A stretch of DNA of 64,000 nucleotides, from assembly GCF_055900595.2 (NCBI RefSeq), contig NZ_CM148325.1; one strand, written 5' to 3'. Every line of letters starts with the position of its first letter. Position 1 is the first letter of the stretch. Positions 14,742 to 42,170 of the stretch are shown here, one piece after another. Under the pieces are notes generated by a model, which worked only from the letters and a program-made list of their open reading frames with translations, was not told where the DNA came from and did no database searches. Position numbers and translations under genes: made by a program.

Positions 14742-15758
14742 ATGAACGCTAAGATAATTGCCTCGCTGGCCTTCACCAGCATGTTCAGCCTCAGCACCCT
14801 GTTAAGCCCGGCGCACGCCGAAGAGCAGGAAAAGGCGCTGAATTTCGGCATTATTTCAACGGAATCACAGCAAAACCTGAAACCGCAATGGACGCCGTTC
14901 TTACAGGATATGGAGAAGAAGCTGGGCGTAAAGGTCAACGCCTTCTTTGCCCCGGACTACGCGGGCATTATCCAGGGGATGCGCTTCAACAAAGTGGACA
15001 TCGCCTGGTACGGCAATCTGTCGGCGATGGAAGCGGTGGATCGCGCCAACGGTCAGGTCTTCGCCCAGACGGTCGCGGCGGATGGATCGCCGGGTTACTG
15101 GAGCGTGTTGATCGTCAACAAAGACAGTCCGATCAACAACCTGAACGATCTGCTGGCAAAGCGTAAAGATCTCACCTTCGGCAATGGCGATCCTAACTCC
15201 ACCTCTGGCTTCCTCGTCCCCGGCTACTACGTCTTCGCCAAAAACAATATCTCCGCCAGCGACTTCAAGCGCACCGTCAACGCCGGGCATGAAACCAACG
15301 CGCTGGCCGTCGCCAACAAGCAGGTGGATGTGGCGACCAACAACACCGAGAACCTCGACAAGCTGAAAACCTCCGCACCGGAGAAGCTCAAAGAACTGAA
15401 GGTGATCTGGAAATCGCCGCTGATCCCAGGCGATCCGATCGTCTGGCGCAAAAATCTTTCCGAAACCACCAAAGACAAGATCTACGACTTCTTTATGAAC
15501 TACGGCAAAACGCCGGAAGAGAAAGCGGTGCTGGAGCGCCTGGGCTGGGCCCCGTTCCGCGCCTCCAGCGACCTGCAACTGGTGCCGATTCGCCAGCTCG
15601 CGCTGTTTAAAGAGATGCAGGGCGTGAAAGGCAATAAAGGGCTGAATGAGCAGGACAAGCTGGCAAAAACCAGCGCCATTCAGGCGCAACTGGATGACCT
15701 GGACCGCCTGAACAACGCGTTAAGCGCGATGAGTTCGGTGAGTAAAGCGGTGCAGTAA
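14742..15758 (+). CDS. phnD: Phosphonate ABC transporter periplasmic binding protein
   Basis: 338 aa with an N-terminal signal peptide; follows phnC. Confidence 0.9.
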   Translation: MNAKIIASLAFTSMFSLSTLLSPAHAEEQEKALNFGIISTESQQNLKPQWTPFLQDMEKKLGVKVNAFFAPDYAGIIQGMRFNKVDIAWYGNLSAMEAVDRANGQVFAQTVAADGSPGYWSVLIVNKDSPINNLNDLLAKRKDLTFGNGDPNSTSGFLVPGYYVFAKNNISASDFKRTVNAGHETNALAVANKQVDVATNNTENLDKLKTSAPEKLKELKVIWKSPLIPGDPIVWRKNLSETTKDKIYDFFMNYGKTPEEKAVLERLGWAPFRASSDLQLVPIRQLALFKEMQGVKGNKGLNEQDKLAKTSAIQAQLDDLDRLNNALSAMSSVSKAVQ

Positions 15759-15768
15759 TGTGCTCGAT

Positions 15769-15861
15769 CGGTCCCCTCTCCCTTGAGGGAGAGGGTTAGG
15801 GTGAGGAAGAAATGCGCACGCTGGTGCCCTCACCCCGGCCCTCTCCCACAGGGAGAGGGAG
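15769..15861. repeat. Pair of GC-rich palindromic units (ccctctccc-loop-gggagaggg plus ttagggtgagg / cctcaccccgg) in inverted orientation
   Basis: Perfect 9-bp stem-loops seen directly; the same unit recurs at 21122-21231. Confidence 0.6.
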
Positions 15862-15883
15862 AAAACATTAAACGGAGCCAAAC

Positions 15884-16663
15884 ATGCAAACCATCACCAT
15901 TGCCCCACCCAAGCGCAGCTGGTTCTCGATCTTCAGCTGGGCCATTGTTCTCGCCGTACTGGTCGTCTCGTGGCAGGGCGCGGAAATGGCCCCGCTCACG
16001 CTGATTAAAGACGGCGGCAACATGGCGACGTTCGCCGCCGACTTCTTCCCGCCCGATTTCAGCCAGTGGCAGGATTACCTCACCGAAATGGCCGTCACGC
16101 TGCAAATCGCCGTCTGGGGCACCGCGCTGGCAGTCGTTCTCTCCATCCCCTTCGGCCTGATGAGCGCCGAAAACCTGGTGCCGTGGTGGGTTTACCAGCC
16201 CGTTCGCCGCCTGATGGACGCCTGCCGCGCCATTAACGAGATGGTCTTCGCCATGCTGTTCGTGGTCGCCGTCGGTCTCGGTCCGTTCGCTGGCGTACTG
16301 GCGCTGTTTATCCACACCACCGGCGTGCTCTCCAAACTGCTTTCCGAAGCGGTAGAAGCAATTGAACCCGGCCCGGTGGAAGGCATTCGCGCCACCGGTG
16401 CCAACAAGCTCGAAGAGATCCTCTATGGCGTGCTGCCGCAGGTGATGCCGCTGCTAATCTCCTACTCCCTCTATCGCTTCGAATCCAACGTCCGCTCGGC
16501 CACCGTTGTTGGCATGGTCGGCGCTGGCGGGATCGGCGTCACGCTGTGGGAAGCGATTCGCGGTTTCCAGTTCCAGCAAACCTGTGCCCTGATGGTGCTG
16601 ATTATCGTCACGGTCAGCCTGCTGGATTTCCTCTCTCAACGGTTGCGTAAGCACTTTATCTGA
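15884..16663 (+). CDS. phnE: Phosphonate ABC transporter permease, apparently intact
   Basis: 259 aa uninterrupted ORF with multiple TM segments. Confidence 0.85.
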
Positions 16664-16683
16664 TAAGCGAGGCATTAATATCT

Positions 16684-17409
16684 ATGCACTTGTCTACACA
16701 TCCGACCAGCTACCCAACACGCTATCAGGAGATAGCCGCAAAACTTGAGCAGGAGCTTCGTCAACACTACCGCTGCGGCGACTATCTTCCCGCCGAGCAG
16801 CAACTGGCAGCGCGCTTTGAGGTGAATCGCCACACCCTGCGCCGTGCCATCGACCAACTGGTGGAAAAAGGCTGGGTACAGCGCCGTCAGGGCGTCGGCG
16901 TGCTGGTGCTGATGCGCCCGTTCGATTACCCGCTCAACGCCCAGGCGCGTTTTAGCCAGAACCTGCTGGATCAGGGTAGCCATCCCACCAGCGAAAAACT
17001 GCTGTCCGTGCTGCGCCCGGCCTCCGGTCACGTCGCTGACGCGCTGGGGATAACCGAGGGCGAGAACGTTATCCACCTGCGCACCCTGCGCCGGGTCAAC
17101 GGCGTCGCACTCTGTTTAATCGACCACTACTTTGCGGACCTCACTCTCTGGCCGACGCTGCAACGCTTCGACAGCGGCTCGCTGCACGATTTTTTGCACG
17201 AGCAAACGGGGATTGCGCTGCGCCGCAGCCAGACGCGGATCAGCGCCCGCCGCGCCCAGGCCAAAGAGTGCCAGCGTCTTGAAATCCCGAATATGTCGCC
17301 GCTGCTGTGCGTGCGCACCCTTAACCACCGTGACGGTGAAAGCAGCCCGGCGGAGTACTCCGTCAGCCTGACGCGCGCCGACATGATTGAATTCACTATG
17401 GAGCACTGA
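16684..17409 (+). CDS. phnF: GntR-family transcriptional regulator of the phn operon
   Basis: 241 aa; N-terminal GntR HTH followed by a UTRA-like domain. Confidence 0.85.
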   Translation: MHLSTHPTSYPTRYQEIAAKLEQELRQHYRCGDYLPAEQQLAARFEVNRHTLRRAIDQLVEKGWVQRRQGVGVLVLMRPFDYPLNAQARFSQNLLDQGSHPTSEKLLSVLRPASGHVADALGITEGENVIHLRTLRRVNGVALCLIDHYFADLTLWPTLQRFDSGSLHDFLHEQTGIALRRSQTRISARRAQAKECQRLEIPNMSPLLCVRTLNHRDGESSPAEYSVSLTRADMIEFTMEH

Positions 17410-17862
17410 ATGCACGCAGATACCGCGACCCGCCAGCACTGGATGTCCGTGCTGGCGCACAGCCAACCGGCTGAACTGGCTAACCGCCTTAAAGCGCTAA
17501 ACATCACCGCCGACTATGACATTATCCGCGCCGCCGAAACCGGCCTGGTACAGATTCAGGCGCGGATGGGTGGCACCGGCGAACGCTTTTTTGCCGGCGA
17601 CGCCACGCTCACCCGCGCCGCCATACGCCTGACTGACGGCACGCTCGGCTACAGCTGGGTGCTGGGGCGCGACAAACAGCACGCCGAACGCTGCGCGCTG
17701 ATTGACGCGCTGATGCAGCAATCTCGCCACTTTCAAAACTTATCAGAAACCCTTATTGCCCCGCTGGACGCTGACCGTATGGCACGCATTGCCGCACGCC
17801 AGGCCGAAGTGAACGCCAGTCGGGTCGACTTCTTTACGATGGTTCGCGGAGACAACGCATGA
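17410..17862 (+). CDS. phnG: C-P lyase core complex subunit PhnG
   Basis: 150 aa; start abuts the phnF stop; operon position. Confidence 0.85.
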
Positions 17863-18443
17863 CCCTGGAAACCGCTTTTATGCTTCCCGTGCAGGATGCC
17901 CAGCACAGTTTTCGTCGCCTGTTAAAGGCCATGAGCGAGCCGGGCGTGATTGTCGCCCTACATCAACTCAAACGCGGCTGGCAGCCGCTGAATATTGCCT
18001 CTACCAGCGTATTGCTGACGCTGGCTGATAACGACACGCCGGTGTGGCTTTCCGCGCCATTAAGTAACGATATCGTCAGCCAGAGCCTGCGTTTTCATAC
18101 CAACGCCCCGCTGGTCAATCAGCCGGAACAGGCGACCTTCGCAGTGACGGATGAGGCGATTGCCAGCGAGCAGCTCAACGCCCTTTCCACCGGCACCGCC
18201 GTTGCGCCGGAAGCCGGTGCGACGTTGATTTTACAGGTCACCAGCCTGAGCGGCGGACGCATGCTGCGCCTCACCGGCGCGGGTATTGCCGAAGAACGGA
18301 TGATCGCCCCGCAACTGCCGGAGTGCATTCTGCACGAACTCACCGAGCGCCCGCACCCGTTCCCGCTCGGCATCGACCTGATCCTGACCTGCGGCGAGCG
18401 CCTGCTGGCTATTCCGCGAACCACTCATGTGGAGGTGTGCTGA
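17859..18443 (+). CDS. phnH: C-P lyase core complex subunit PhnH
   Basis: 194 aa; 4-nt overlap with phnG. Confidence 0.85.
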
Positions 18444-19507
18444 TGTACGTTGCCGTGAAAGGGGGCGAGAAGGCGATCGACGCCGCCCACGCCCTGCAAG
18501 AGAGCCGACGCCGGGGCGATACCGATTTGCCTGAACTGAGCGTCGCCCAGATTGAACAGCAGCTTAATCTCGCGGTGGATCGCGTGATGACCGAAGGCGG
18601 CATTGCCGACCGCGAACTGGCCGCACTGGCGCTGAAACAGGCCAGTGGCGATAACGTTGAAGCAATTTTCCTGCTGCGCGCCTACCGCACGACGCTGGCA
18701 AAACTGGCGGTGAGCGAACCGCTCGACACCACCGAGATGCGTCTCGAACGCCGTATCTCCGCCGTTTATAAAGACATTCCTGGCGGCCAGTTGCTTGGCC
18801 CGACCTACGACTACACCCATCGCCTGCTCGATTTCACCCTGCTGGCGAATGGCGAAGCGCCGACGCTGACCACCGCCGACAGCGAGCAAGCCCCATCACC
18901 GCACGTTTTCAGCCTGCTGGCGCGTCAGGGGCTGGCGAAGTTTGAAGAGGATAGCGGCACACAGCCGGATGACATCACCCGCACGCCGCCGGTTTACCCC
19001 TGCTCACGCTCCTCCCGCCTGCAGCAGCTCATGCGCGGAGACGAAGGCTATTTGCTGGCGCTGGCCTACTCCACCCAGCGTGGTTACGGACGCAATCACC
19101 CGTTCGCAGGCGAAATCCGCAGTGGCTATATCGACGTGTCTATTGTGCCGGAAGAGCTGGGATTTGCGGTGAACATCGGCGAACTGCTGATGACCGAGTG
19201 TGAAATGGTCAACGGTTTTATCGACCCGCCGGATGAGCCGCCGCACTTCACGCGCGGCTACGGGCTGGTGTTCGGCATGAGCGAGCGCAAAGCGATGGCA
19301 ATGGCGCTGGTTGACCGTGCGTTGCAGGCTCCGGAGTACGGCGAGCACGCGACAGGCCCGGCGCAGGATGAAGAGTTCGTGCTGGCGCATGCCGACAACG
19401 TCGAAGCCGCAGGCTTTGTCTCGCACCTCAAACTCCCGCACTACGTCGATTTCCAGGCCGAGCTGGAGCTACTCAAACGTCTGCAACAGGAGCAGAACCA
19501 TGGCTAA
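18443..19507 (+). CDS. phnI: C-P lyase core complex subunit PhnI
   Basis: 354 aa from [17 protein letters not shown]; ATG overlaps the phnH stop (the six-frame ORF start at 18323 is an upstream extension). Confidence 0.85.
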   Translation: MYVAVKGGEKAIDAAHALQESRRRGDTDLPELSVAQIEQQLNLAVDRVMTEGGIADRELAALALKQASGDNVEAIFLLRAYRTTLAKLAVSEPLDTTEMRLERRISAVYKDIPGGQLLGPTYDYTHRLLDFTLLANGEAPTLTTADSEQAPSPHVFSLLARQGLAKFEEDSGTQPDDITRTPPVYPCSRSSRLQQLMRGDEGYLLALAYSTQRGYGRNHPFAGEIRSGYIDVSIVPEELGFAVNIGELLMTECEMVNGFIDPPDEPPHFTRGYGLVFGMSERKAMAMALVDRALQAPEYGEHATGPAQDEEFVLAHADNVEAAGFVSHLKLPHYVDFQAELELLKRLQQEQNHG

Positions 19508-20345
19508 TCTGAGCGGCTACAACTTTGCCTACCTCGACGAGCAGACCAAACGCATGATCCGCCGCGCCATCTTAAAAGCGGTGGCGATCCCCGGCTATCA
19601 GGTGCCGTTTGGCGGGCGCGAGATGCCGATGCCATACGGCTGGGGAACCGGCGGCATACAGCTTACCGCCAGCGTGATTGGCGAAAGCGACGTGTTGAAG
19701 GTGATTGACCAGGGCGCGGATGACACCACCAACGCCGTATCAATTCGCAACTTTTTCAAGCGCGTGACCGGGGTAAACACCACTGAACGTACGGACGATG
19801 CGACGCTTATCCAGACGCGCCACCGCATCCCCGAAACGCCGCTGACCGAAGATCAGATCATTATCTTCCAGGTGCCGATCCCGGAACCGCTGCGCTTTAT
19901 CGAGCCGCGCGAAACGGAGACCCGCACCATGCACGCGCTGGAGGAGTACGGCGTGATGCAGGTGAAACTATATGAAGATATCGCCCGCTTCGGTCATATC
20001 GCCACCACTTATGCCTATCCGGTGAAGGTGAACGGGCGCTACGTCATGGACCCATCGCCGATCCCGAAATTCGATAACCCGAAAATGGACATGATGCCCG
20101 CCCTGCAACTGTTTGGCGCGGGGCGCGAGAAGCGTATTTATGCGGTGCCGCCGTTTACCCGCGTGGAAAGCCTCGATTTTGACGATCACCCGTTCACCGT
20201 TCAGCAGTGGGATGAACCCTGCGCGATTTGCGGATCAACCCACAGCTATCTCGATGAAGTGGTGCTGGATGACGCCGGAAACCGCATGTTTGTCTGCTCC
20301 GATACCGATTATTGCCGCCAACAGAGCGAGGCGAAAAGCCAATGA
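19500..20345 (+). CDS. phnJ: C-P lyase catalytic subunit PhnJ
   Basis: 281 aa from MANLSGYNFAYLDEQTKRMIRR; C-terminal Cys cluster (CAICGSTHSYLDE...CSDTDYC); overlaps phnI. Confidence 0.85.
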   Translation: MANLSGYNFAYLDEQTKRMIRRAILKAVAIPGYQVPFGGREMPMPYGWGTGGIQLTASVIGESDVLKVIDQGADDTTNAVSIRNFFKRVTGVNTTERTDDATLIQTRHRIPETPLTEDQIIIFQVPIPEPLRFIEPRETETRTMHALEEYGVMQVKLYEDIARFGHIATTYAYPVKVNGRYVMDPSPIPKFDNPKMDMMPALQLFGAGREKRIYAVPPFTRVESLDFDDHPFTVQQWDEPCAICGSTHSYLDEVVLDDAGNRMFVCSDTDYCRQQSEAKSQ

Positions 20346-21100
20346 ATCAACCGTTACTTTCGGTCAATAACCTGACCCACCTTTACGCGCCGGGCAAAGG
20401 CTTCAGCGATGTCTCTTTTGATTTATGGCCGGGGGAAGTGCTGGGCATTGTCGGGGAATCCGGTTCCGGGAAGACCACGCTGCTGAAATCAATCTCCGCC
20501 CGTCTGACGCCGCAACAGGGGGAGATTCACTATGAAAACCGTTCCCTCTATGGCATGAGCGAGGCCGACCGCCGTCGCCTGCTGCGCACCGAATGGGGCG
20601 TGGTGCATCAGCATCCGCTCGACGGCCTGCGCCGCCAGGTCTCGGCAGGCGGCAATATCGGCGAACGGCTGATGGCGACCGGGGCGCGTCATTACGGCGA
20701 CATTCGCGCCACCGCGCAGAAGTGGCTGGAAGAGGTGGAGATTCCCGCCAACCGTATCGACGACCTGCCGACCACTTTTTCCGGCGGTATGCAGCAGCGT
20801 TTGCAGATTGCCCGCAACCTGGTGACGCATCCGAAGCTGGTGTTTATGGATGAACCGACCGGCGGGCTGGATGTATCGGTACAGGCGCGCCTGCTCGACC
20901 TGCTGCGCGGCCTGGTGGTGGAACTGAACCTGGCGGTGGTGATTGTCACCCATGATTTAGGCGTCGCCCGCCTGCTGGCGGACCGTTTGCTGGTGATGAA
21001 GCAGGGGCAGGTGGTGGAGAGTGGGTTAACCGACCGCGTGCTCGACGACCCGCATCACCCGTATACCCAGTTGCTGGTGTCATCGGTTTTGCAGAATTGA
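20342..21100 (+). CDS. phnK: C-P lyase accessory ATPase PhnK (ABC-type NBD)
   Basis: 252 aa from MNQPLLSVNNLTHLY; Walker A GESGSGKTTLL. Confidence 0.85.
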   Translation: MNQPLLSVNNLTHLYAPGKGFSDVSFDLWPGEVLGIVGESGSGKTTLLKSISARLTPQQGEIHYENRSLYGMSEADRRRLLRTEWGVVHQHPLDGLRRQVSAGGNIGERLMATGARHYGDIRATAQKWLEEVEIPANRIDDLPTTFSGGMQQRLQIARNLVTHPKLVFMDEPTGGLDVSVQARLLDLLRGLVVELNLAVVIVTHDLGVARLLADRLLVMKQGQVVESGLTDRVLDDPHHPYTQLLVSSVLQN

Positions 21101-21121
21101 ATGCAACACCGTGCGCGCTGA

Positions 21122-21231
21122 TCCCCTCACCCCGGCCCTCTCCCGGAGGGAGAGGGAGAAAACCGGCGCAATATTCAACACCGCGCACAATCGGTCCCCT
21201 CGCCCCTTCGGGGAGAGGGTTAGGGTGAGGG
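21122..21231. repeat. Two GC-rich palindromic units of the same family as 15769-15861, flanked by caacaccg(t)gcgc motifs
   Basis: cccctcaccccggccctctcccggagggagaggg and cggtcccctcgccccttcggggagagggttagggtgagggg seen directly. Confidence 0.6.
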
Positions 21232-21276
21232 GCAATGCGCGCACCGCTCCCCAATATGCGAACCACGAGGCGAAAA

Positions 21277-21957
21277 ATGATTAACGTACAAAACGTCAGT
21301 AAAACCTTCATCCTGCACCAGCAAAACGGCGTGCGCCTGCCCGTCTTACAACGCGCCTCGCTCACCGTCAACGCGGGCGAATGCGTGGTGCTCCACGGTC
21401 ACTCCGGCAGCGGCAAATCGACCCTGCTACGTTCGCTGTACGCCAACTATCTGCCCGACGAAGGGCAAATCCAGATTAAACACGGTGACGAATGGATAGA
21501 CCTGGTCACCGCCCCAGCGCGCAAAGTGGTGGAAATCCGCAAAACCACTGTCGGCTGGGTAAGTCAGTTTCTGCGCGTCATCCCGCGTATTTCGGCACTG
21601 GAAGTGGTGATGCAGCCGCTGCTCGATACCGGCGTTCCGCGTGAAGCCTGCGCCGCTAAAGCCGCCCGATTACTGACGCGCCTGAACGTGCCTGAACGCC
21701 TGTGGCACCTGGCACCATCGACCTTCTCCGGCGGCGAACAGCAGCGCGTCAACATCGCCCGTGGCTTTATCGTCGACTATCCGATTCTGCTGCTGGATGA
21801 ACCCACCGCCTCGCTGGACGCCAAAAACAGCGCCGCCGTAGTGGAACTGATCTGCGAAGCCAAAGCCCGCGGCGCGGCCATCGTCGGTATCTTCCATGAC
21901 GAAGCCGTACGCAATGACGTCGCCGACCGCCTGCACCCAATGGGAGTCTCTTCATGA
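21277..21957 (+). CDS. phnL: C-P lyase accessory ATPase PhnL (ABC-type NBD)
   Basis: 226 aa from [11 protein letters not shown]; Walker [12 protein letters not shown]. Confidence 0.85.
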
Positions 21958-23090
21958 TTATCAATAACGTCAAACTGGTGCTGGAAAATGAAGTGGTGCA
22001 CGGTTCACTGGAAGTACAGGATGGCGAAATTCGCGCCTTTGCCGAAAGCCAGAGCCGCCTGCCAGAGGCGATGGACGGCGAAGGCGGCTGGCTGCTGCCG
22101 GGGCTGATTGAGCTGCATACCGACAACCTCGATAAATTCTTCACTCCGCGCCCAAAAGTGGACTGGCCTGCCCACTCGGCGATGAGCAGCCACGACGCGC
22201 TGATGGTGGCGAGCGGCATCACCACCGTACTGGATGCCGTGGCGATTGGCGACGTGCGCGACGGCGGCGATCGGCTGGAGAATCTGGAGAAGATGATCAA
22301 CGCCATCGAAGAGACGCAGAAACGCGGCGTCAACCGCGCCGAGCACCGTCTGCACCTGCGCTGTGAACTGCCACATCACACCACGCTGCCGCTGTTTGAA
22401 AAACTGGTGCAGCGCGAGCCGGTAACGCTGGTGTCGCTAATGGACCACTCGCCGGGCCAGCGCCAGTTCGCCAATCGCGAGAAGTATCGCGAATATTATC
22501 AGGGCAAATACTCGCTCACCGATGCGCAGATGCAGCTGTACGAAGAGGAACAGCTGGCGCTTGCCGCACGCTGGTCGCAGCCGAATCGCGAAACCATCGC
22601 CGCAATGTGCCGCGCGCGACAAATTGCCCTCGCCAGCCACGATGACGCCACGCACGCGCACGTTGCCGAATCCCACCAGCTTGGCAGCGTAATCGCCGAA
22701 TTTCCCACCACGTTCGAAGCGGCGGAAGCTTCGCGCAAGCATGGCATGAATGTATTGATGGGCGCGCCGAATATTGTGCGCGGCGGTTCGCACTCCGGCA
22801 ACGTGGCGGCCAGTGAACTGGCACAGCTTGGTCTGCTGGATATCCTCTCTTCCGACTACTACCCCGCCAGCCTGCTCGATGCGGCATTTCGCGTCGCCGA
22901 TGACGAGAGCAACCGCTTTACGCTGCCGCAGGCGGTGAAGCTGGTGACTAAAAATCCGGCGCAGGCGCTGAATCTTCAGGATCGCGGGGTGATTGGCGAG
23001 GGCAAACGCGCCGACCTGGTGCTGGCGCATCGCAAGGGTAATCACATTCATATCGACCACGTCTGGCGTCAGGGGAAAAGGGTGTTTTGA
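21954..23090 (+). CDS. phnM: RPnTP diphosphohydrolase PhnM (amidohydrolase superfamily)
   Basis: 378 aa; 4-nt overlap with phnL and phnN; operon position. Confidence 0.85.
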
Positions 23091-23647
23091 TGATGGGAAA
23101 ACTGGTTTGGTTGATGGGGCCGTCCGGCTCCGGGAAAGATAGCCTGCTGGCGGAGCTCCGCCTGCGGGAACAAGCTCAGTTACTGGTGGCGCATCGCTAC
23201 ATCACGCGCGATGCCAGCGCCGGAAGCGAAAATCATATCGCCCTGAGTGAGCAGGAGTTTTTTGCCCGCGCGGGGCAGCAACTCTTCGCATTAAGCTGGC
23301 ATGCTAATAGCTACTATTACGGTGCCGGGCTGGAAATTGACCTCTGGCTGCACGCCGGATTCGACGTGGTGGTCAACGGTTCACGCGCCCATCTGCCGCA
23401 GGCGCGGGCGCGCTATCAATCGGCGCTGCTGCCCATCTGTTTACAGGTTTCGCCAGAGATCCTGCGCCAGCGCCTGGAAAACCGTGGACGGGAAAACGCG
23501 ACAGAAATTAACGCCCGACTCGCACGCGCCGCCCGCTATACTCCTCAGGATTGCCATACGCTCAACAATGACGGCAGCCTGCGCCAGTCGGTCGACACGC
23601 TGCTGACGCTGATCCATCAGAAGGAGAAACACCATGCCTGCTTGTGA
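23090..23647 (+). CDS. phnN: Ribose 1,5-bisphosphate phosphokinase PhnN
   Basis: 185 aa; P-loop [11 protein letters not shown]. Confidence 0.85.
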
Positions 23648-24068
23648 GCTTCGCCCGGCCACGCAGTACGATACCGACGCGGTTTACGCGCTGATTTGCG
23701 AGCTAAAACAGGCGGAGTTTGACCACCACGCGTTTCGCGTGGGGTTTAACGCCAATCTGCGCGACCCGAACATGCGCTACCATCTGGCGCTGCTGGATGG
23801 CGAAGTTGTCGGCATGATCGGCCTGCATTTGCAGTTTCATCTGCATCATGTCAACTGGATCGGCGAAATTCAGGAACTGGTGGTGATGCCGCAGGCACGT
23901 GGTTTGAACGTGGGTAGCAAATTGCTGGCATGGGCGGAAAAAGAAGCTCGCCAGGCCGGGGCCGAAATGACCGAGCTTTCCACCAACGTCAAGCGCCACG
24001 ACGCGCACCGTTTCTATCTGCGCGAAGGCTACGAGCAGAGCCACTTCCGCTTCACCAAGGCGCTGTAA
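23634..24068 (+). CDS. phnO: Aminoalkylphosphonate N-acetyltransferase PhnO (GNAT)
   Basis: 144 aa GNAT-like protein overlapping the phnN 3' end. Confidence 0.85.
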
Positions 24069-24069
24069 C

Positions 24070-24828
24070 ATGAGCCTGACCCTCACACTTACTGGCACTG
24101 GCGGCGCACAGGGTGTTCCCGCATGGGGCTGTGAGTGCGCGGCCTGCGCCAGAGCGCGGCGCTCACCGCAGTATCGCCGCCAGCCATGCAGCGGCGTCGT
24201 GAAGTTTAACGACGCGATCACCCTGATCGACGCCGGGCTGCACGGTCTCGCCGATCGCTGGTCGCCCGGATCGTTCCAGCAGTTTTTGCTGACACACTAC
24301 CATATGGATCACGTGCAGGGGCTGTTTCCGCTGCGCTGGGGCGTGGGCGATTCGATCCCGGTCTACGGCCCGCCGGATGAACAGGGCTGCGACGATCTGT
24401 TTAAACATCCGGGCCTGCTTGATTTCAGCCACACGGTGGAGCCATTTGTGATGTTTGATTTGCAGGGATTACAGGTCACGCCGCTGCCGCTCAACCATTC
24501 GAAACTCACTTTCGGCTATCTACTGGAAACGGCACATAGCCGGGTGGCGTGGCTGTCTGACACCGCAGGCCTGCCGGAAAAAACGGTGAAATTTTTACGC
24601 AATAATCAGCCGCAGGTGATGGTGATTGATTGCAGTCACCCACCGCGCGCGAATTCGCCACGCAATCACTGTGATTTAAACACCGTGCTGGCGCTGAATG
24701 AAGTTATCCGCTCGCCGCGCGTGGTTCTGACACATATCAGCCATCAGCTTGATGTGTGGCTGATGGAGAACGTACTGCCGTCAGGGTTTGAGGCGGGGTT
24801 TGATGGGATGGAGATTGGGGTGGAGTGA
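24070..24828 (+). CDS. phnP: Phosphoribosyl 1,2-cyclic phosphate phosphodiesterase PhnP (metallo-beta-lactamase fold)
   Basis: 252 aa; HxHxDH motif (THYHMDH). Confidence 0.85.
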
Positions 24829-24862
24829 TGGGTGAGGGGCGATGCCTGCTCTAAACTCAACA

Positions 24863-35994: not shown

Positions 35995-36165
35995 TAGGCC
36001 TGATAAGACGCGGCAAGCGTCGCATCAGGCATTGATGTCGGATGCGGCGTAAACGCCTTATCCGACCTACAAAATCACGCTAAATCAGGCTATTGCGCAG
36101 TCTGGCGTAGGCCTGATAAGACGCGGTAAGCGTCGCATCAGGCATCCACACATTGCCGGGTGTAT
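35995..36165. repeat. Cluster of REP/BIME units
   Basis: Three copies of gtaggcctgataagacgcg...cgtcgcatcaggc / ggatgcggcgtaaacgccttatccgacctac in alternating orientation. Confidence 0.85.
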
Positions 36166-36183
36166 GTCCCCGGCAATCCTCAA

Positions 36184-37497
36184 TTATTGATCCGCAGTTT
36201 TATCAAATTTGCCCAGCACTTCGCGCTCATAAGCCAGCGCTTTCTTACGGTCAAATTTGTGTTCCCACTTGGCAATCACCAGCACCGCCAGCGCGTTACC
36301 CACCACATTCAGTGCCGTACGTGCCATGTCGAGGATACGGTCAACACCGGCAATAAACGCCAGACCTTCCAGCGGGATCCCTACGCTGCCCAGCGTTGCC
36401 AGCAACACCACAAACGACACGCCCGGCACGCCAGCAATCCCTTTCGAGGTCACCATCAGCGTCAGCACCAGAATGATTTCCTGCCAGATGGACAGGTCAA
36501 TGCCATACAACTGCGCGATGAAAATAGCGGCAATACTTTGATACAGCGTCGAACCATCAAGGTTAAAAGAGTAACCGGTCGGCACCACGAAACTGGTGAT
36601 CGACGCCGGTGCACCGTAGGCTTCCATCTTCTCAATAATTCGCGGCAACACGCTTTCAGAGCTGGCAGTGGAGTACGCCAGAATCAGCTCATCTTTCAGA
36701 ATACGAATCAGGATCCAGACGCTTAACCCGCACAGGCGCGCCACAATTCCCAGCACTACCAGCGCGAAGAACAGAATGGCGAAATGCACCAGCAGCACCA
36801 GTTTCGCCAGTGGCCACAGAGACGAGAAACCAAAGTTAGCCACCGTCACCGCAATCAGCGCAAACACACCCACCGGCGCATAACGCATCACCATATGAGT
36901 CACTTTAAACATGGTTTCAGAGATGGAGCGGAACACGGTCACCAGCGGTTCACGATGCGTCGCGGGCAGGGAGGAAAGCCCCAGACCAAACAGTACCGAG
37001 AAGAAGATGATCGGTAACATTTCGCCTTTCGCCATCGACGCCACAATGTTCGTCGGCACCAGAGACAAAATCGTGCCCATAATACCGTGGGAACTGCTCT
37101 GTACCGCTTCTGTAGTGCTCTGATATTTCGAGATATCGACGGTTGCCAGCTGCGACATATCCACCCCGGCACCGGGCTGGAAGACGTTCGCCAGGGTGAT
37201 CCCCAGAATGATGGCGACAGTGGTGATCACCTCGAAATAGATAATGGTTTTCGCGCCAATACGCCCGAGCTGTTTGGCATCACCAACACCCGCGATACCC
37301 ACCACCAGCGTGGAGATCACAATCGGCACAACAATCATTTTGATCAGATGGATGAAGATATCACCCGCCGGAGAGAGCAAATTGACGACCAGCCAGTCGC
37401 GGCTGTCGCTATGGTAGTGCAGGTAGCTTCCCAGGAGAATGCCCAGCACCATAGCAAACAGAATCTGCCAGGCCAGGCTGAATTTTATATTTTTCAT
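36184..37497 (-). CDS. gltP: Glutamate/aspartate:proton symporter (DAACS family)
   Basis: 437 aa multi-TM protein, N-terminus MKNIKFSLAWQILFAMVLGILLG. Confidence 0.9.
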   Translation of the reverse strand: MKNIKFSLAWQILFAMVLGILLGSYLHYHSDSRDWLVVNLLSPAGDIFIHLIKMIVVPIVISTLVVGIAGVGDAKQLGRIGAKTIIYFEVITTVAIILGITLANVFQPGAGVDMSQLATVDISKYQSTTEAVQSSSHGIMGTILSLVPTNIVASMAKGEMLPIIFFSVLFGLGLSSLPATHREPLVTVFRSISETMFKVTHMVMRYAPVGVFALIAVTVANFGFSSLWPLAKLVLLVHFAILFFALVVLGIVARLCGLSVWILIRILKDELILAYSTASSESVLPRIIEKMEAYGAPASITSFVVPTGYSFNLDGSTLYQSIAAIFIAQLYGIDLSIWQEIILVLTLMVTSKGIAGVPGVSFVVLLATLGSVGIPLEGLAFIAGVDRILDMARTALNVVGNALAVLVIAKWEHKFDRKKALAYEREVLGKFDKTADQ

Positions 37498-37838
37498 CAG
37501 AATAACTTCCTCAATGGAGCGCCGTTCCCCGTTCAGAAACGCGAGAACGTGACATACTGCCAGGGCATGAATTGTGTTGCGTTGGTTTGTAGATTTTTTT
37601 AACGCTTATGATCAGTATCATTTGCGCGGTATGTTGCGCAACCCTTTAACAACAGAGCTTTTCGCTGCATTAATGCATAATAACGCGAGTTTATGGCAGG
37701 ATTAATGAATAACCATTTGTTATGGAAAGATTTTTATTTGTTTAACCTGCAATAATACTGATTAGTGATTATTTTGGGCATATGTTCATTCGATTATTTT
37801 TTATGCAGCTCAATAACATAATCTTCATCACCAGATGA

Positions 37839-38435
37839 TTAATCTGATCTCCGCTGCAACAGTTTCGCCAAATTAATCGACTCGACCAGCTGTGTCCGGT
37901 TGATCCGGGGTGAGTTGAGATCCATCACTTTTTGCCATAGTTCGATGGCTTGCGCGTAATTCGCCTGCATAAACGCATCGGAAGCCAGCAGCATCAGAGC
38001 GGTGATTTCGTTAGAGTCCAGCGCGAGGGCTTTGTCGATCATTGCGCGAGTCTGGGCGGTCATATGCTGGCTGGCCTGGTAATAAAGCACCGTCGCCAGC
38101 GCCGCATACAGTTCAGCGTTCTCACCACGTAGTTGCAACGCCTGACGGTACGCCAGCAGCGAATTGCTGTAATCGTTTTGCCACAGATAATACTCGCCCA
38201 GTAACGCCCATTGTTCGCTGTTTTGTGGATTAGCGCGGATTTTATCCTGCAATGCCTGAAGCTGCGCTTCCGGGGTTTGCTGGCTGGCAAACTGATGTAG
38301 CGGATCGCGCTGACGCTGATACTCCGCACGTACCGCCTGCCATTTTGGGCTTAACAGATAACTGCCGATACAGAGAAATACCATCAATATCGTGAGTGTT
38401 GTCAGCATTTTCACCGGTATTTGAGGCTGTTTCAT
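37839..38435 (-). CDS. nrfG: Cytochrome c-type biogenesis protein NrfG (TPR, heme lyase accessory)
   Basis: 198 aa from [10 protein letters not shown]; TPR repeats; overlaps nrfF. Confidence 0.8.
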
Positions 38436-38815
38436 CGCTTCGCCCTTACCCGCCAGAGGATCAGTATCATCAGCAGTAACAACACCACTGGCAGCGCCCA
38501 CAACACCAGCGTCTGACCGGTTAACGGTGGGTTATAGCGAACAAAATCTCCGTAGCGTTCGGTCATCCAGCCAATGATTTCGACTTCACTTTTCCCCTCC
38601 GCCACCATGCTGTAAACCTGATGGCGCATACTGACTGCCACCGGCGCATTGGATTCCAGTAAGTTCTGATTCTGGCACTGCGGGCAGCGTAACTGGCTGG
38701 CAATATTTAACGCCTGTTCCTGTTGTTGCGGATTGGCGAATTGCCAGGTGTCTACAACCTGAGCGCGCGCAAAACAGGTAAATAACAGCAGTAGCGTGAG
38801 AAGCCCTTTATTCAT
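38432..38815 (-). CDS. nrfF: Cytochrome c-type biogenesis protein NrfF (CcmH-like)
   Basis: 127 aa; signal peptide; CPQC motif (LRCPQCQNQ). Confidence 0.8.
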
Positions 38816-40490
38816 CGCGCTTCCTCCCCCGCCATCCGCTTAACAATGCGCCCGCAATCATCAACAATCCTCCCCCCCAGATCCAGCGCACACCGCGTTG
38901 TACATACAAACGAAAAGCGTAACGATCCGGTCCGGTTTTCTCGCCCATGACCGCATACCAGTCATGGATGCCGTTCCAGCGAATTGACGGTTCCATCATT
39001 TGCTGACGACGTGCTTCGTAAAAACGCCGCTCCGGCGTTAATTCACCAATGCGTTGCTGATGGTCAAACAGCGCCACTATCGCTTTTTCGCTGGTGTAAT
39101 TGCCTTTGGCTTGCAGATCGAGGCGCTCAAAACGGAAGGTGTATCCTGCCAGAGTCACCTGCTGACCCGGCTGTAAATTCAGGCTGATCTCCTGATGGCT
39201 GACGCTTGAAACCACGATCCCCGCGGCAAATAACAGCACACCCGCATGCGCCAGCAGCGCCGGAAGCTGCACGCGTTTGCCAGAGACAAACGTCGCCAGC
39301 ACAATCACCACCAGCATCAACAGACCAAACGGTAACGTCGCGCGGTTAAAATACGGCGCGCCAACGGAGAGGCGTCCCCAGCCCAGCAGGCCGTAAATCA
39401 TCGGATAAAGCGTTCCCACCAGCACTATCAGTAGCACTGCGCAAAACAGCAACAGCGTAGCGAGGATTAACATTTCCCGCGATAACCCCGAAAAACGCAC
39501 CGCCGGGCCACCGTCCCGCGCTCGCCAGCCATACAGAGCCAGAGACGCAAGGCTAATCAGTGCAAACAGGCTGAACAACGGCACGGCGCGGACGTTATCC
39601 AGTGCGAACGCATGAACCGAAACCAGAATGCCAGAACGGACAATTAAGGTGCCCAGCAGCGACAGCATCAGAGTAACTATCGCCAGTAACAGCGACCAGT
39701 GGCGGAAAATCCCCCGCTGGCGTGTCAGGGACAAACTGTGCAGCAGCGCAGTGGCAGAAAGCCAGGGTAATAAAGAGGCGTTTTCCACCGGGTCCCAGAA
39801 CCACCAGCCGCCCCAGCCCAGTTCGCAATAGGCCCACCAGGAACCAAGGATGATCCCCGCCGTTAATGCGCTCCAGCCAGGTAGTGCCCAACGCCAGCAA
39901 ATTCGGGCGTTGACACCATCAAACTCGCCGCGCAGTAGACTCGCCAGCGCCACGCTCGCCGCTACCATCAAACCGCCATAGCCAAGATAAAGCAGCGGTG
40001 GATGAAAGATAAGACCGGGATGTTGCAGCATCGGATTGAGATCGCGACCTTCGATTGCTGGTGGAAATATCCGCACGAAGGGATCGGACCACAGCACCAC
40101 AAACAGTAGCAGTGCGGCGAGCATGAGAGATAAAACGGCTAGCGTCAGCGGAAATAGCGGATCGGTTTGCTGCCGATAATGCCAGGCAAACAGCGCGCTC
40201 CACGCGGAAAGGAGTAGCACCCAAAGTAGCAGCGAACCTTCATGCCCTCCCCACACTGCCGCCAGTTTGAGTTCCCACGACAGCAGGCTGTAGCTATGTT
40301 GGGCGACATAAATGACCGAGAAATCGCTGATGAGAAAACAATACGTCAGTACGCCAAAAGCGATCAGCAGGAGCGCGAACTGTGCCAGAGTGCCGATGCA
40401 AGTGAGTCGCATCATGGCAGGCCAGCGCAACCGCACTCCCGCAAAGGTTGTCAACGGGGTCAACACGTTGACCCCAAGACTTAACAACAA
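38808..40490 (-). CDS. nrfE: Heme lyase NrfE (CcmF-like); exact start uncertain
   Basis: ~552-560 aa polytopic membrane protein with CcmF-like Trp-rich segments; operon position. Confidence 0.8.
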   Translation of the reverse strand: MLLSLGVNVLTPLTTFAGVRLRWPAMMRLTCIGTLAQFALLLIAFGVLTYCFLISDFSVIYVAQHSYSLLSWELKLAAVWGGHEGSLLLWVLLLSAWSALFAWHYRQQTDPLFPLTLAVLSLMLAALLLFVVLWSDPFVRIFPPAIEGRDLNPMLQHPGLIFHPPLLYLGYGGLMVAASVALASLLRGEFDGVNARICWRWALPGWSALTAGIILGSWWAYCELGWGGWWFWDPVENASLLPWLSATALLHSLSLTRQRGIFRHWSLLLAIVTLMLSLLGTLIVRSGILVSVHAFALDNVRAVPLFSLFALISLASLALYGWRARDGGPAVRFSGLSREMLILATLLLFCAVLLIVLVGTLYPMIYGLLGWGRLSVGAPYFNRATLPFGLLMLVVIVLATFVSGKRVQLPALLAHAGVLLFAAGIVVSSVSHQEISLNLQPGQQVTLAGYTFRFERLDLQAKGNYTSEKAIVALFDHQQRIGELTPERRFYEARRQQMMEPSIRWNGIHDWYAVMGEKTGPDRYAFRLYVQRGVRWIWGGGLLMIAGALLSGWRGRKRDE

Positions 40491-40545
40491 CGCCAGAAAA
40501 CCGACTTCAGGAAGGAATACGTCCAGAAACCACCTCTTTTCTGGC

Positions 40546-41502
40546 TTACGCCACCGTCAACTGCCCAGCGTAGAGAATGAAAAAGCGCAGCATCAACACC
40601 CCGACCAGGCTGGCCCCACACGCCGCCAGCACGGCAGGAATCCCGGAACTGCGATTGACCCACGGTTTGAGCAACATTGGCACAATCAGCCCCAGCCCGG
40701 CGACACCAAGCCAGAACCACCACGTCCAGAAACCACCGCCCAATGCTGCCACCAGCGCACGCACTTTGCCGTCATCGCCCAGCGCCAGGCCAACAAAAAA
40801 CGCCACCAGCAGGAAGATTTCGCCCCATACCACAGGGATTTCCATCCGGTGAACAAAGTGCGCTTCCGTGGAATGCGGATTACTGCGCTGGCGTATCGCC
40901 ATAGCGATCAACGCCACCGCCGCACCGGACGAGATGCCGGAGAAGAGGAATAGCACCGGTAAAATCGGATTATTGAGGAACGGATATGATTTCAGCGCAG
41001 ACAGCAGAAAGCCGGTATAAGCCCCCAGCAACACCGCCAGCACCAGCATCAGCGTTTCCAGTCCGCGGTGAACGGGCGTCAGCAGGCTCAGAACCTTTTG
41101 CACAATTCCCAGCTTCGGCAACCAGCGTTGTTGCAGGGCAAGCAAATCATGTTCAAAGATTTTCGCCAGCCACAACACCAGCACCACCATGTAGAGCTGA
41201 AACAGCATCACCCCCATCGACATCACCGAGGTAAAACTGTAGTGGAACATCAGCTTCCAGAAGGTCCACGGTCTTGTCAGGTGGAAGACGAGGATCAACA
41301 GACCGAGGATCACCGCGCCAGGCCCGACAATCAGCGTGGTGCGCAGCAACGTACTGTCTGCACCGCCCGCCTGTGGGTAGAAGCGACGTAACAGCACGGC
41401 CAGCGTCACCAGACCGGCAGAAATACCAATCAAAAACAGGTAGATGGCAATCGGCCAGTCCCACACCAGCGATTCAAAATGAAATGCGGAAGTCTGCGTC
41501 AT
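40546..41502 (-). CDS. nrfD: Nitrite reductase membrane subunit NrfD (putative quinol oxidase)
   Basis: 318 aa, 8-TM NrfD/PsrC family. Confidence 0.85.
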   Translation of the reverse strand: MTQTSAFHFESLVWDWPIAIYLFLIGISAGLVTLAVLLRRFYPQAGGADSTLLRTTLIVGPGAVILGLLILVFHLTRPWTFWKLMFHYSFTSVMSMGVMLFQLYMVVLVLWLAKIFEHDLLALQQRWLPKLGIVQKVLSLLTPVHRGLETLMLVLAVLLGAYTGFLLSALKSYPFLNNPILPVLFLFSGISSGAAVALIAMAIRQRSNPHSTEAHFVHRMEIPVVWGEIFLLVAFFVGLALGDDGKVRALVAALGGGFWTWWFWLGVAGLGLIVPMLLKPWVNRSSGIPAVLAACGASLVGVLMLRFFILYAGQLTVA

Positions 41503-42170
41503 TGGCTCACCTCCCCGTATTTAAACGGTACGCGGTACAGCTTCGGTTTGGTTCCCAGCGCCAGCTTGTAGCGGTAAGTGGGCTTCTGGCGTAGCAGTTG
41601 CGAAATCTCACTGTTGGGATCGTCCAGATTGCCAAACGTCAGCGCCTTCGTCGGGCAAGCCTCAACGCACGCGGGGAGCTTACCGGCCTGCAAATTGGTC
41701 TTACGGCAGAAATCGCATTTGTCCGCCGTCTTCGTGACCGGATGGATAAAGCGCACGCGGTACGGACAGGCGGCGATGCAGTACTGACAACCGACGCAGA
41801 GATCTAGGTTAACATCGACAATCCCGCTGGCAGCATCGCGAAAAGACGCACCCGTTGGGCAGACGTCAACGCACGGTGCATGGTCGCAGTGCTGGCAAGA
41901 CTTACGAAAGAAGCGATATTTCACATCAGGAAATTCGCCCTGCGGCTCGCTACGAATAATTGTCAGGCGCGAGACGCCTTCCGGCACCTTGTTCACTTCC
42001 CGACAAGCATCCATACAGGCAGTACAGCCGATGCATAACGACTCGTCATGCACCATGCCGTAACGCACCCCATTGATATTCAACGTTTTCGCCACCACGC
42101 GTCCTGCGGTGCCGCTGACGGCTGCCAGCACGCCGACGCCGGTGAGAAACTGGCGACGAGACCAGGTCAT
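41499..42170 (-). CDS. nrfC: Nitrite reductase Fe-S subunit NrfC
   Basis: 223 aa; Tat signal RRQFL; several CxxCxxCxxxCP 4Fe-4S motifs. Confidence 0.85.

Follow-up and report, generated by a model that had tools for sequence, protein, structure and literature searches.

The gap between phnK and phnL in the window (the whole 64,000-nucleotide stretch of DNA that was analysed) is filled, judging by its match to the published motif, by two copies of the BoxC repeat, also known as PIT and TMECO. The two copies form an inverted pair of one type A and one type B unit. BoxC is a small palindromic repeat that is scattered between genes in E. coli and in related enterobacteria. The BoxC A+B element is already known and catalogued and is not a new element. 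Most strains have an unrelated REP at the same spot, and the filling is therefore an ordinary repeat polymorphism. The pair is very probably one of two old alternative fillings that are tolerated at this junction and that are structurally polymorphic. As an element, the phnK-phnL BoxC pair is of little importance. The junction is a natural experiment with three states, which are an empty junction (9 nt, in other genera), a REP pair and a BoxC pair.

In this explanation, the BoxC pair occupies the only junction between phnF and phnP without gene overlap, where it is probably tolerated and not required. The pair may persist because the phnK-phnL junction needs no translational coupling. The spacer would be reshuffled among strains by short-patch homologous recombination and would also be altered by palindrome-driven deletion and expansion.

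Organisation of the gap and identity of the repeat

The phnK-phnL gap spans 21101-21276 (176 bp, window coordinates), and the start of phnL is the ATG at 21277. A pair of palindromic units had previously been placed in a gap of ~175 bp here, and both the pair and the gap are confirmed. PGAP gives the same phnK and phnL layout in strain E8, whose spacer is that of the window. The features of the gap, and the related pair between phnD and phnE, are as follows.

21098-21100, plus strand: phnK stop codon TGA; the filling begins at the following base
21111-21245: composite BoxC pair of 135 bp (tail, type B unit, linker, type A unit, tail), delimited by matches at other loci, alignment and 40-nt arms
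21111-21122: left tail GTGCGCGCTGAT, the palindromic core of which, GTGCGCGC, pairs with 21238-21245
21124-21156, minus strand: BoxC/TMECO type B unit CCCTCTCCC-TCC-GGGAGAGGG-CCG-GGGTGAGGG; exact match to the published pattern and 90% identity to 15816-15866
up to 21163, plus strand: conserved flank of the type B unit, GAGAAAAC
21164-21192: conserved 29-nt linker cggcgcaatattcaacaccgcgcacaatc between the type B and type A units
21197-21231, plus strand: BoxC/TMECO type A unit CCCTCGCCC-CTTCG-GGGAGAGGG-TTA-GGGTGAGGG, from the pattern match and repeat alignments
21234-21245: right tail CAATGCGCGCAC, which repeats the left tail in inverted orientation
21246-21266, plus strand: locus-specific remainder cgctccccaatatgcgaaccac, of which the final 8 nt (cgaaccac) are common to the K-12 REP-type spacer
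21267-21279, plus strand: phnL Shine-Dalgarno region and start codon gaggcgaaaaATG, retained by other genera with an empty junction and predicted to stay unpaired in the RNA
15768-15866: sister pair between phnD and phnE, arranged the other way round, with a type A unit first, one shared tail in the centre and a type B unit last

Read on the plus strand, the unit B region (21123-21156) is CCCCTCACCCC-gg-CCCTCTCCC-ggag-GGAGAGGG and the unit A region (21196-21233) is CCCCTCGCCCC-ttc-GGGGAGAGGG-tta-GGGTGAGGGG. The two units are mutually inverted, and a repeat finder places 40-nt arms with 78% complementarity at 21111-21150 and 21205-21244. The preliminary description related these units to a pair at 15769-15861, and this relationship is borne out by alignment. 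The segment 15816-15866 aligns with 21113-21163 over 51 nt (90%) and 15780-15806 aligns with 21204-21230 over 27 nt (93%); in each case a phnD-phnE unit is compared with a phnK-phnL unit. With up to three mismatches allowed, the 20-nt probe GGGAGAGGGTTAGGGTGAGG finds exactly four units in the 64 kb and none in 100 shuffles.

An in-frame ATG at 21235, which would add 14 codons to PhnL, was considered as the phnL start and rejected. This ATG is part of the BoxC tail, the predicted fold pairs it, and REP-type alleles lack it. PGAP picks the K-12-type start.

Holder et al. (2015, PMC4666352) treat BoxC, which dates from the 1990s, the PIT elements described by Hoyne and Maher (2000, 2002) and their own TMECO as one motif. 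The TMECO consensus is CCCTCNCCC-N3-6-GGGNGAGGG-N3-GGGNGAGGG, and the second loop is TTA in type A and CCG in type B (Holder et al. 2015, PMC4666352). In the same study, MG1655 contains 23 copies, all of which are intergenic, and the number per strain is 1-29. The five inverted pairs of MG1655 each consist of a type A and a type B unit. An independent survey gives BoxC as 56 bp with 32 copies, and BoxC also features in the survey of Bachellier et al. (1999).

The published TMECO pattern matches exactly at 21124-21156 (minus strand) and 21197-21231 (plus strand) and is not found in 100 shuffles. Three of the four units in the window fit the pattern exactly; the plus-strand unit between phnD and phnE is off by its final base. 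The second loops at phnK-phnL are GGGAGAGGG-TTA-GGGTGAGG on the plus strand (type A) and GGGAGAGGG-CCG-GGGTGAGG on the minus strand (type B). The 156-nt filling (21101-21256) has a median of 17 places per E. coli genome (range 1-29), and no annotated feature lies beneath any of the listed matches. The filling thus shares with BoxC/PIT/TMECO the exact consensus, the inverted pairing of A (TTA) with B (CCG), a strictly intergenic position, variation between strains, a copy number of ~17-23 per E. coli genome and a length of ~52-56 bp for unit plus tail. Nothing essential sets it apart, except that the phnK-phnL copy is missing in K-12, the reference strain of these studies, which has a REP there. 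No phn gene names were found in the supplements of Holder et al. (2015, PMC4666352), a study with 62 TMECO loci, and the literature searched gave no relevant account of a REP or another repeat within the phn operon.

The filling was aligned with pairs near flgK (M114), at a glycosyltransferase locus (EC16, JNQH497), between cpxA and yiiM (WR3-3) and between yjdP and phnP in K-12. Across these unrelated loci, conservation starts sharply at GTGCGCGCTGAT and stops at CAAWGCGCGCAC, and the sequences beyond are unrelated. Other E. coli loci match the 156-nt query at positions 10/11 to 142/145 with 85-92% identity. These sharp ends define the repeated composite as 21111-21245, which at 135 bp agrees with the composite of ~140 bp, an inverted pair with inverted GC-rich ends, that had been recognised before. 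The 29-nt linker recurs in the yjdP-phnP pair of K-12 and at other E. coli loci, and Pseudocitrobacter has it in tandem.

The outer inverted motif is present as GTGCGCGC (21111-21118) and GCGCGCAC (21238-21245). A third copy, CACCGCGCAC, lies in the middle of the gap (21179-21188), so each BoxC unit is separately bracketed. In the A-then-B order, which both the phnD-phnE pair of the window and the mrcB-hrpB pair in strain 1283 show, a single GC-rich tail lies at the centre of symmetry. The tail is therefore central in A/B pairs and outer in B/A pairs, and BoxC pairs occur in two arrangements, B-linker-A with outside tails and A-tail-B. The two arrangements recall the mosaic organisation of BIMEs. 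By their position in the aligned pairs, the flanking inverted motifs are terminal tails that belong to individual BoxC units. The bracketing motifs of the preliminary description are thus real at both ends, but they are unit tails and not an extra feature. The conserved motif is GTGCGCGC(TGAT) only, and the adjoining 'caacacc' is locus-specific and lies outside the composite. The 29-nt linker, the two arrangements and the tandem modules of Pseudocitrobacter were not found described in the post-1990s BoxC literature that was covered, and they may not be new.

The composite was earlier likened to a miniature inverted-repeat insertion. This likeness is partial. The composite recurs with the same ends and the junction is short elsewhere, but the element is the known BoxC and has no target-site duplication. 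It is improbable that the 135-bp composite with GTGCGCGC/GCGCGCAC ends is a non-autonomous MITE, mobilised in trans by a transposase or nuclease and inserted as one unit. With bacterial MITEs (ERIC/IRU and the Neisseria Correia element NEMIS) it shares a length of ~135 bp, terminal inverted repeats (here 8-10 bp), sharp conserved ends, which are the same at four other loci of unrelated sequence, and dispersed intergenic copies that are co-transcribed with neighbouring genes. Empty sites are also present in other genera. Unlike MITEs, the BoxC pair consists of two separable sub-units, which are also found alone or arranged the other way round, with the tail central and not terminal. The check for target-site duplications is negative, as none of the five aligned loci has a direct repeat common to its two flanks. 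A clean empty site occurs in no E. coli genome, the copy number is low (~17-23 per genome), and we know of no parent insertion sequence for BoxC. Holder et al. (2015, PMC4666352) saw no association of TMECO with transposons, phages or plasmids.

In searches of plasmid and phage collections, the BoxC filling is likewise rare on plasmids and its phage matches are essentially nil. Many of the 'plasmid' records that match are megabase-sized, chromosome-like DNA. Partial matches to the composite (80-90%) on replicons of Rhizobium, Sinorhizobium and Azospirillum make up 217 of the 360 plasmid-collection records. Related G/C-block repeats therefore seem to be present in alphaproteobacteria.

The junction in E. 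coli and in other genera

In a census of 5426 complete E. coli genomes, the K-12 REP type is present at phnK-phnL in 4840 genomes (89%) and the BoxC type in 545 (~10%). One or the other is found in 5385 genomes (99.2%), and no empty phnK-phnL junction is seen among the 5426. The K-12 gap is 110 bp and contains two classical REPs. The REP consensus palindrome (GCCGGATGCGGCG...CTTATCCGGCCTAC or GCCGGATGCGGCG...CGCCTTATCCGGCCTAC) is absent from the window gap and occurs twice in the K-12 allele. A probe containing the K-12 REP has a median of 27 places per genome.

The REP/BIME filling is similar to the BoxC filling in that it occupies the identical site, is built as a mosaic of inverted pairs and linker motifs and is predicted to form a very stable transcript hairpin that leaves the Shine-Dalgarno sequence free. 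It differs in sequence, which is unrelated to BoxC, and in abundance, with hundreds of REP copies per genome compared with ~20 BoxC copies. REPs are associated with RAYT transposases; BoxC is not known to have such a partner. The linker between the two K-12 REPs, AAATGCGCTCCCC, is single-copy per genome and resembles the BoxC right tail CAATGCGC[GCACCGC]TCCCC minus 7 nt. This resemblance hints that the REP form derives from the BoxC form, although the match is too short to carry that derivation.

One PhnK scan of species-representative genomes yielded 80 loci, with no other Escherichia species among them. Across the 80 species, the median gap is -4 nt at phnJ-phnK, +22 nt at phnK-phnL and -4 nt at phnL-phnM, and phnK-phnL is therefore generally a non-overlapping junction. 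The gaps in K-12 are 0 (F-G), -4 (G-H), -1 (H-I), -8 (I-J), -4 (J-K), +110 (K-L), -4 (L-M), -1 (M-N), -14 (N-O) and +1 (O-P). The window has the same layout, except that its K-L gap is +176. These values support the earlier statement that nearly all other junctions of the operon overlap.

In Citrobacter sp. FP75, the phnK-phnL junction is 9 nt long (TGA-gaggccaac-ATG). Leclercia has a Citrobacter-like junction of 9 nt and an Enterobacter MAG has one of 7 nt, and the short-junction pattern in these genera is 7-9 nt, TGA-gaggcSaac-ATG. Other REP-type palindromes are present between phnK and phnL in E. cloacae, Pluralibacter, Cedecea, C. werkmanii, Kluyvera and strain RIT691, and E. asburiae has three copies of another REP-type palindrome in 160 bp. 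Several Pseudomonas have Pseudomonas-type REPs. For many of these palindromic fillings, the z of the fold is between -4 and -8 (-4.4 to -8.3 in E. asburiae, Pluralibacter, C. werkmanii and Pseudomonas).

In five Pseudomonas/Stutzerimonas loci (L049, L050, L055, L058 and L075), the Pseudomonas-type REP palindromes occupy phnK-phnL gaps that are 82-190 nt long, and z reaches -8. The gap of L075 has a weak fold (z -0.8). The phnL and phnM genes overlap in these genomes with REP-filled phnK-phnL gaps.

On comparison of these sequences, the phnK-phnL gap is not an ancestral spacer, and the ancestral length is ~9 nt. The comparison with empty sites proposed in the preliminary description thus finds them in Citrobacter, Leclercia and the Enterobacter MAG and in none of the E. 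coli genomes. The gap is not identical in all relatives, as E. coli itself is split between BoxC (545) and REP (4840), and the reading of the gap as an insertion survives. An ancestral spacer with an operon-internal signal, either a promoter for phnL-P or a terminator or attenuator after phnK, is largely refuted and has only a very slight chance of being correct. In its favour, the gap is large within an otherwise compact operon, and its sequence is conserved across strains of the BoxC form. However, the spacer is missing in related genera and is replaced by a REP in 89% of E. coli. A promoter and terminator scan of the gap finds no sigma-70-like promoter and no intrinsic terminator on the plus strand, and terminator-like matches occur on the minus strand only. 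No Rfam family reaches threshold. At a permissive E-value, the Rfam search of 15000-22000 gives only sub-threshold chance matches to microRNA hairpins, with 20-25 bits compared with thresholds of 55-168.

On the minus strand at 21186-21164, a linker hairpin, GCGCGGTGTTGAATATTGCGC, is followed by GGTTTTCTC. This structure is weakly terminator-like and is antisense to the operon. The linker contains two terminator-like minus-strand hits compared with 0.5 expected in shuffles.

At least five states of the phnD-phnE gap (window 15759-15883; L099-L102; L001 11283-11336) occur within E. coli. It contains a BoxC pair in the window and in N96 (368 genomes), a REP/BIME in K-12 and E8, a collapsed 67-nt form in strain 600468 and, in O121 RM8352, a hairpin with a long (GGGAGA)n microsatellite behind it. 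A further form is ~186 bp long. Strain E8 has a REP at phnD-phnE but BoxC at phnK-phnL, and the two junctions are therefore unlinked. Between yjdP and phnP, K-12 has a BoxC B-linker-A pair (L001 2199-2344) that is 85% identical over 114 nt to the phnK-phnL composite. In the window, a single terminal block GGGTGAGGGG lies right after the phnP stop (24829-24850) beside the shared flank cgatgcctgc. This block looks like a collapsed or deleted BoxC pair.

Predicted folding and possible effects on the transcript

The spacer RNA of the window is predicted to form one long hairpin (MFE -95.1 kcal/mol, z = -8.0). The hairpin begins 13 nt past the phnK stop and leaves gaggcgaaaaAUG, the phnL Shine-Dalgarno sequence, unpaired. 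The K-12 REP spacer has the same predicted layout (-60.7 kcal/mol, z = -7.1), and the phnD-phnE pair folds with -71.2 kcal/mol (z = -7.6). Single units form modest hairpins as DNA (z -1 to -2, Watson-Crick folding), and the extreme stability is therefore due to the pair. The antisense, minus-strand RNA folds with -104.1 kcal/mol, which is at least as stable as the sense fold. This symmetry is therefore that of a DNA palindrome and not of an RNA-tuned structure. Strand bias as a sign of RNA-level structure was rejected on the same values (-104.1 compared with -95.1 kcal/mol).

The most probable molecular effect of the pair would be that of a large intercistronic hairpin, which could act as a REP-like barrier to 3' exonucleases in the phn mRNA. 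By analogy with REPs this role is plausible, but it is doubtful. In the tests cited by Holder et al. (2015, PMC4666352), PIT elements have no promoter, terminator or polymerase-blocking activity in vivo. These results argue against strong expression effects; mRNA decay lies outside those tests. There is no obvious stoichiometric reason for separate expression of phnK and phnL.

A rival to simple tolerance is that the junction is selected for a very stable hairpin, with BoxC and REP/BIME pairs interchangeable. This is unlikely on the present evidence, and so is its mechanistic content, in which the hairpin would keep 3'-to-5' exonucleases away from the phnC-K transcript upstream of it and uncouple the expression of phnL-P. 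Two unrelated families occupy one E. coli site, both as extreme hairpins with the Shine-Dalgarno sequence free, and 99.2% of the E. coli genomes have one of them. In E. asburiae, Pluralibacter, C. werkmanii and several Pseudomonas, the junction is taken up by strongly folding palindromes that belong to other families. BoxC and REP also alternate at phnD-phnE, where a binding-protein gene is followed by a permease gene. The stabilisation of upstream mRNA by REPs was first described at malE-malF, which has a similar binding-protein/permease arrangement. However, close relatives live with a junction of 7-9 nt, and phnD-phnE tolerates both collapsed and microsatellite-expanded versions. The fold of the minus strand is no less stable than that of the sense strand, and the published PIT tests, as cited, show no effect on transcription. 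A permissive junction that is the only one without overlap accounts for the convergence without selection. Tolerance of the BoxC pair is thus preferred to selection for it.

Somewhat less likely still is a wider proposal, in which phnD-phnE and phnK-phnL are both selected for stable hairpins that segment the 14-gene phn mRNA by stability, and BoxC and REP are old interchangeable alleles in patches of ~300 bp. If this were true, BoxC, which has been without a known function for 30 years, would gain a REP-like role in mRNA. The BoxC/REP alternation at two phn junctions provides a clean experimental handle on BoxC function.

Allele history and instability of the spacer

The phnK and phnL genes of Pseudocitrobacter faecalis DSM 27453 are E. 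coli-like (99% in protein, ~92% in DNA). The spacer between them (L003 2260-2557) is 298 bp long and has the same ends as that of the window. It consists of a type B unit, two hairpin-only modules and a type A unit, and the extra modules, each a hairpin plus linker, have a period of 61 bp. The BoxC filling is therefore old and able to expand. The distance of the P. faecalis phnK and phnL from the E. coli alleles is approximately that between the two E. coli allele groups. The sequences suggest horizontal transfer of the phn operon.

Within E. coli, the window differs from E8, O121, WCHEC035148, 600468 and A30 at 75-84 of the 1440 positions of phnK and phnL. The spacer is identical at 176 of 176 positions in the window, E8, O121, WCHEC035148 and 600468, and A30 has a 1-nt deletion. 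The window and E8 are free of mismatches over 298 nt (21077-21374). N96, a close relative by its flanks, has 28 coding differences from the window, yet its spacer has ~13 differences. E200086 differs at 42 coding positions, and its spacer is a mosaic in which the left 20 nt are N96-like and the rest is of the common type. The nearest flank relatives of the window, N96 and E200086, are thus without its spacer. K-12, of the REP type, falls among the BoxC-type alleles by flank distance (39-53 differences).

The simplest reading of these alignments is that short recombination patches shift the spacer between phn alleles. Under such short-patch recombination, both fillings would be old polymorphisms. 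Alternatively, purifying selection could account for identical spacers despite flanks that are 5% divergent. The intergenic repeats here probably recombine independently of the flanking genes and should not serve as phylogenetic markers.

The pair might also act at the level of DNA, by forming intrastrand triplexes or a cruciform during replication or transcription, with local genetic variation as its role. This is a poor prospect. A G-rich oligonucleotide of the TMECO consensus forms a stable intrastrand purine-motif triplex in vitro (CD and NMR), and TMECO loci are rearranged more than control sites (Holder et al. 2015, PMC4666352). The junctions studied here also vary. At least four states are present at phnK-phnL (BoxC, a BoxC variant, REP and the expanded Pseudocitrobacter form), the phnD-phnE gap has the collapsed 67-nt and the (GGGAGA)n forms, and the K-12 yjdP-phnP pair is down to a single block in the window. 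However, double-stranded DNA gives no triplex signal and there is no DMS protection in vivo (Holder et al. 2015, PMC4666352). The phnK-phnL spacer is uniform, with at least 99% identity to the 156-nt filling of the window in 500 records compared with 545 BoxC-type genomes. Instability is moreover a property of the repeat and not proof of a selected function. A tolerated, structurally polymorphic BoxC pair remains the preferred reading.

In other NCBI assemblies, the phnJ-phnN stretch is near-identical to that of the window, with 1-2 differences in 3681 bp and an identical 176-nt spacer. Among complete RefSeq E. coli genomes, the best identity to 17000-24800 of the window (phnF-phnP) is 97.7%, and 5270 genomes have 90-95%. 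In the nrf-gltP region nearby (36000-44000), identity is 99.9% to a small E. coli group and 95-99% to nearly all others. By its sequence identities, the phn operon is unusually diverse within E. coli.
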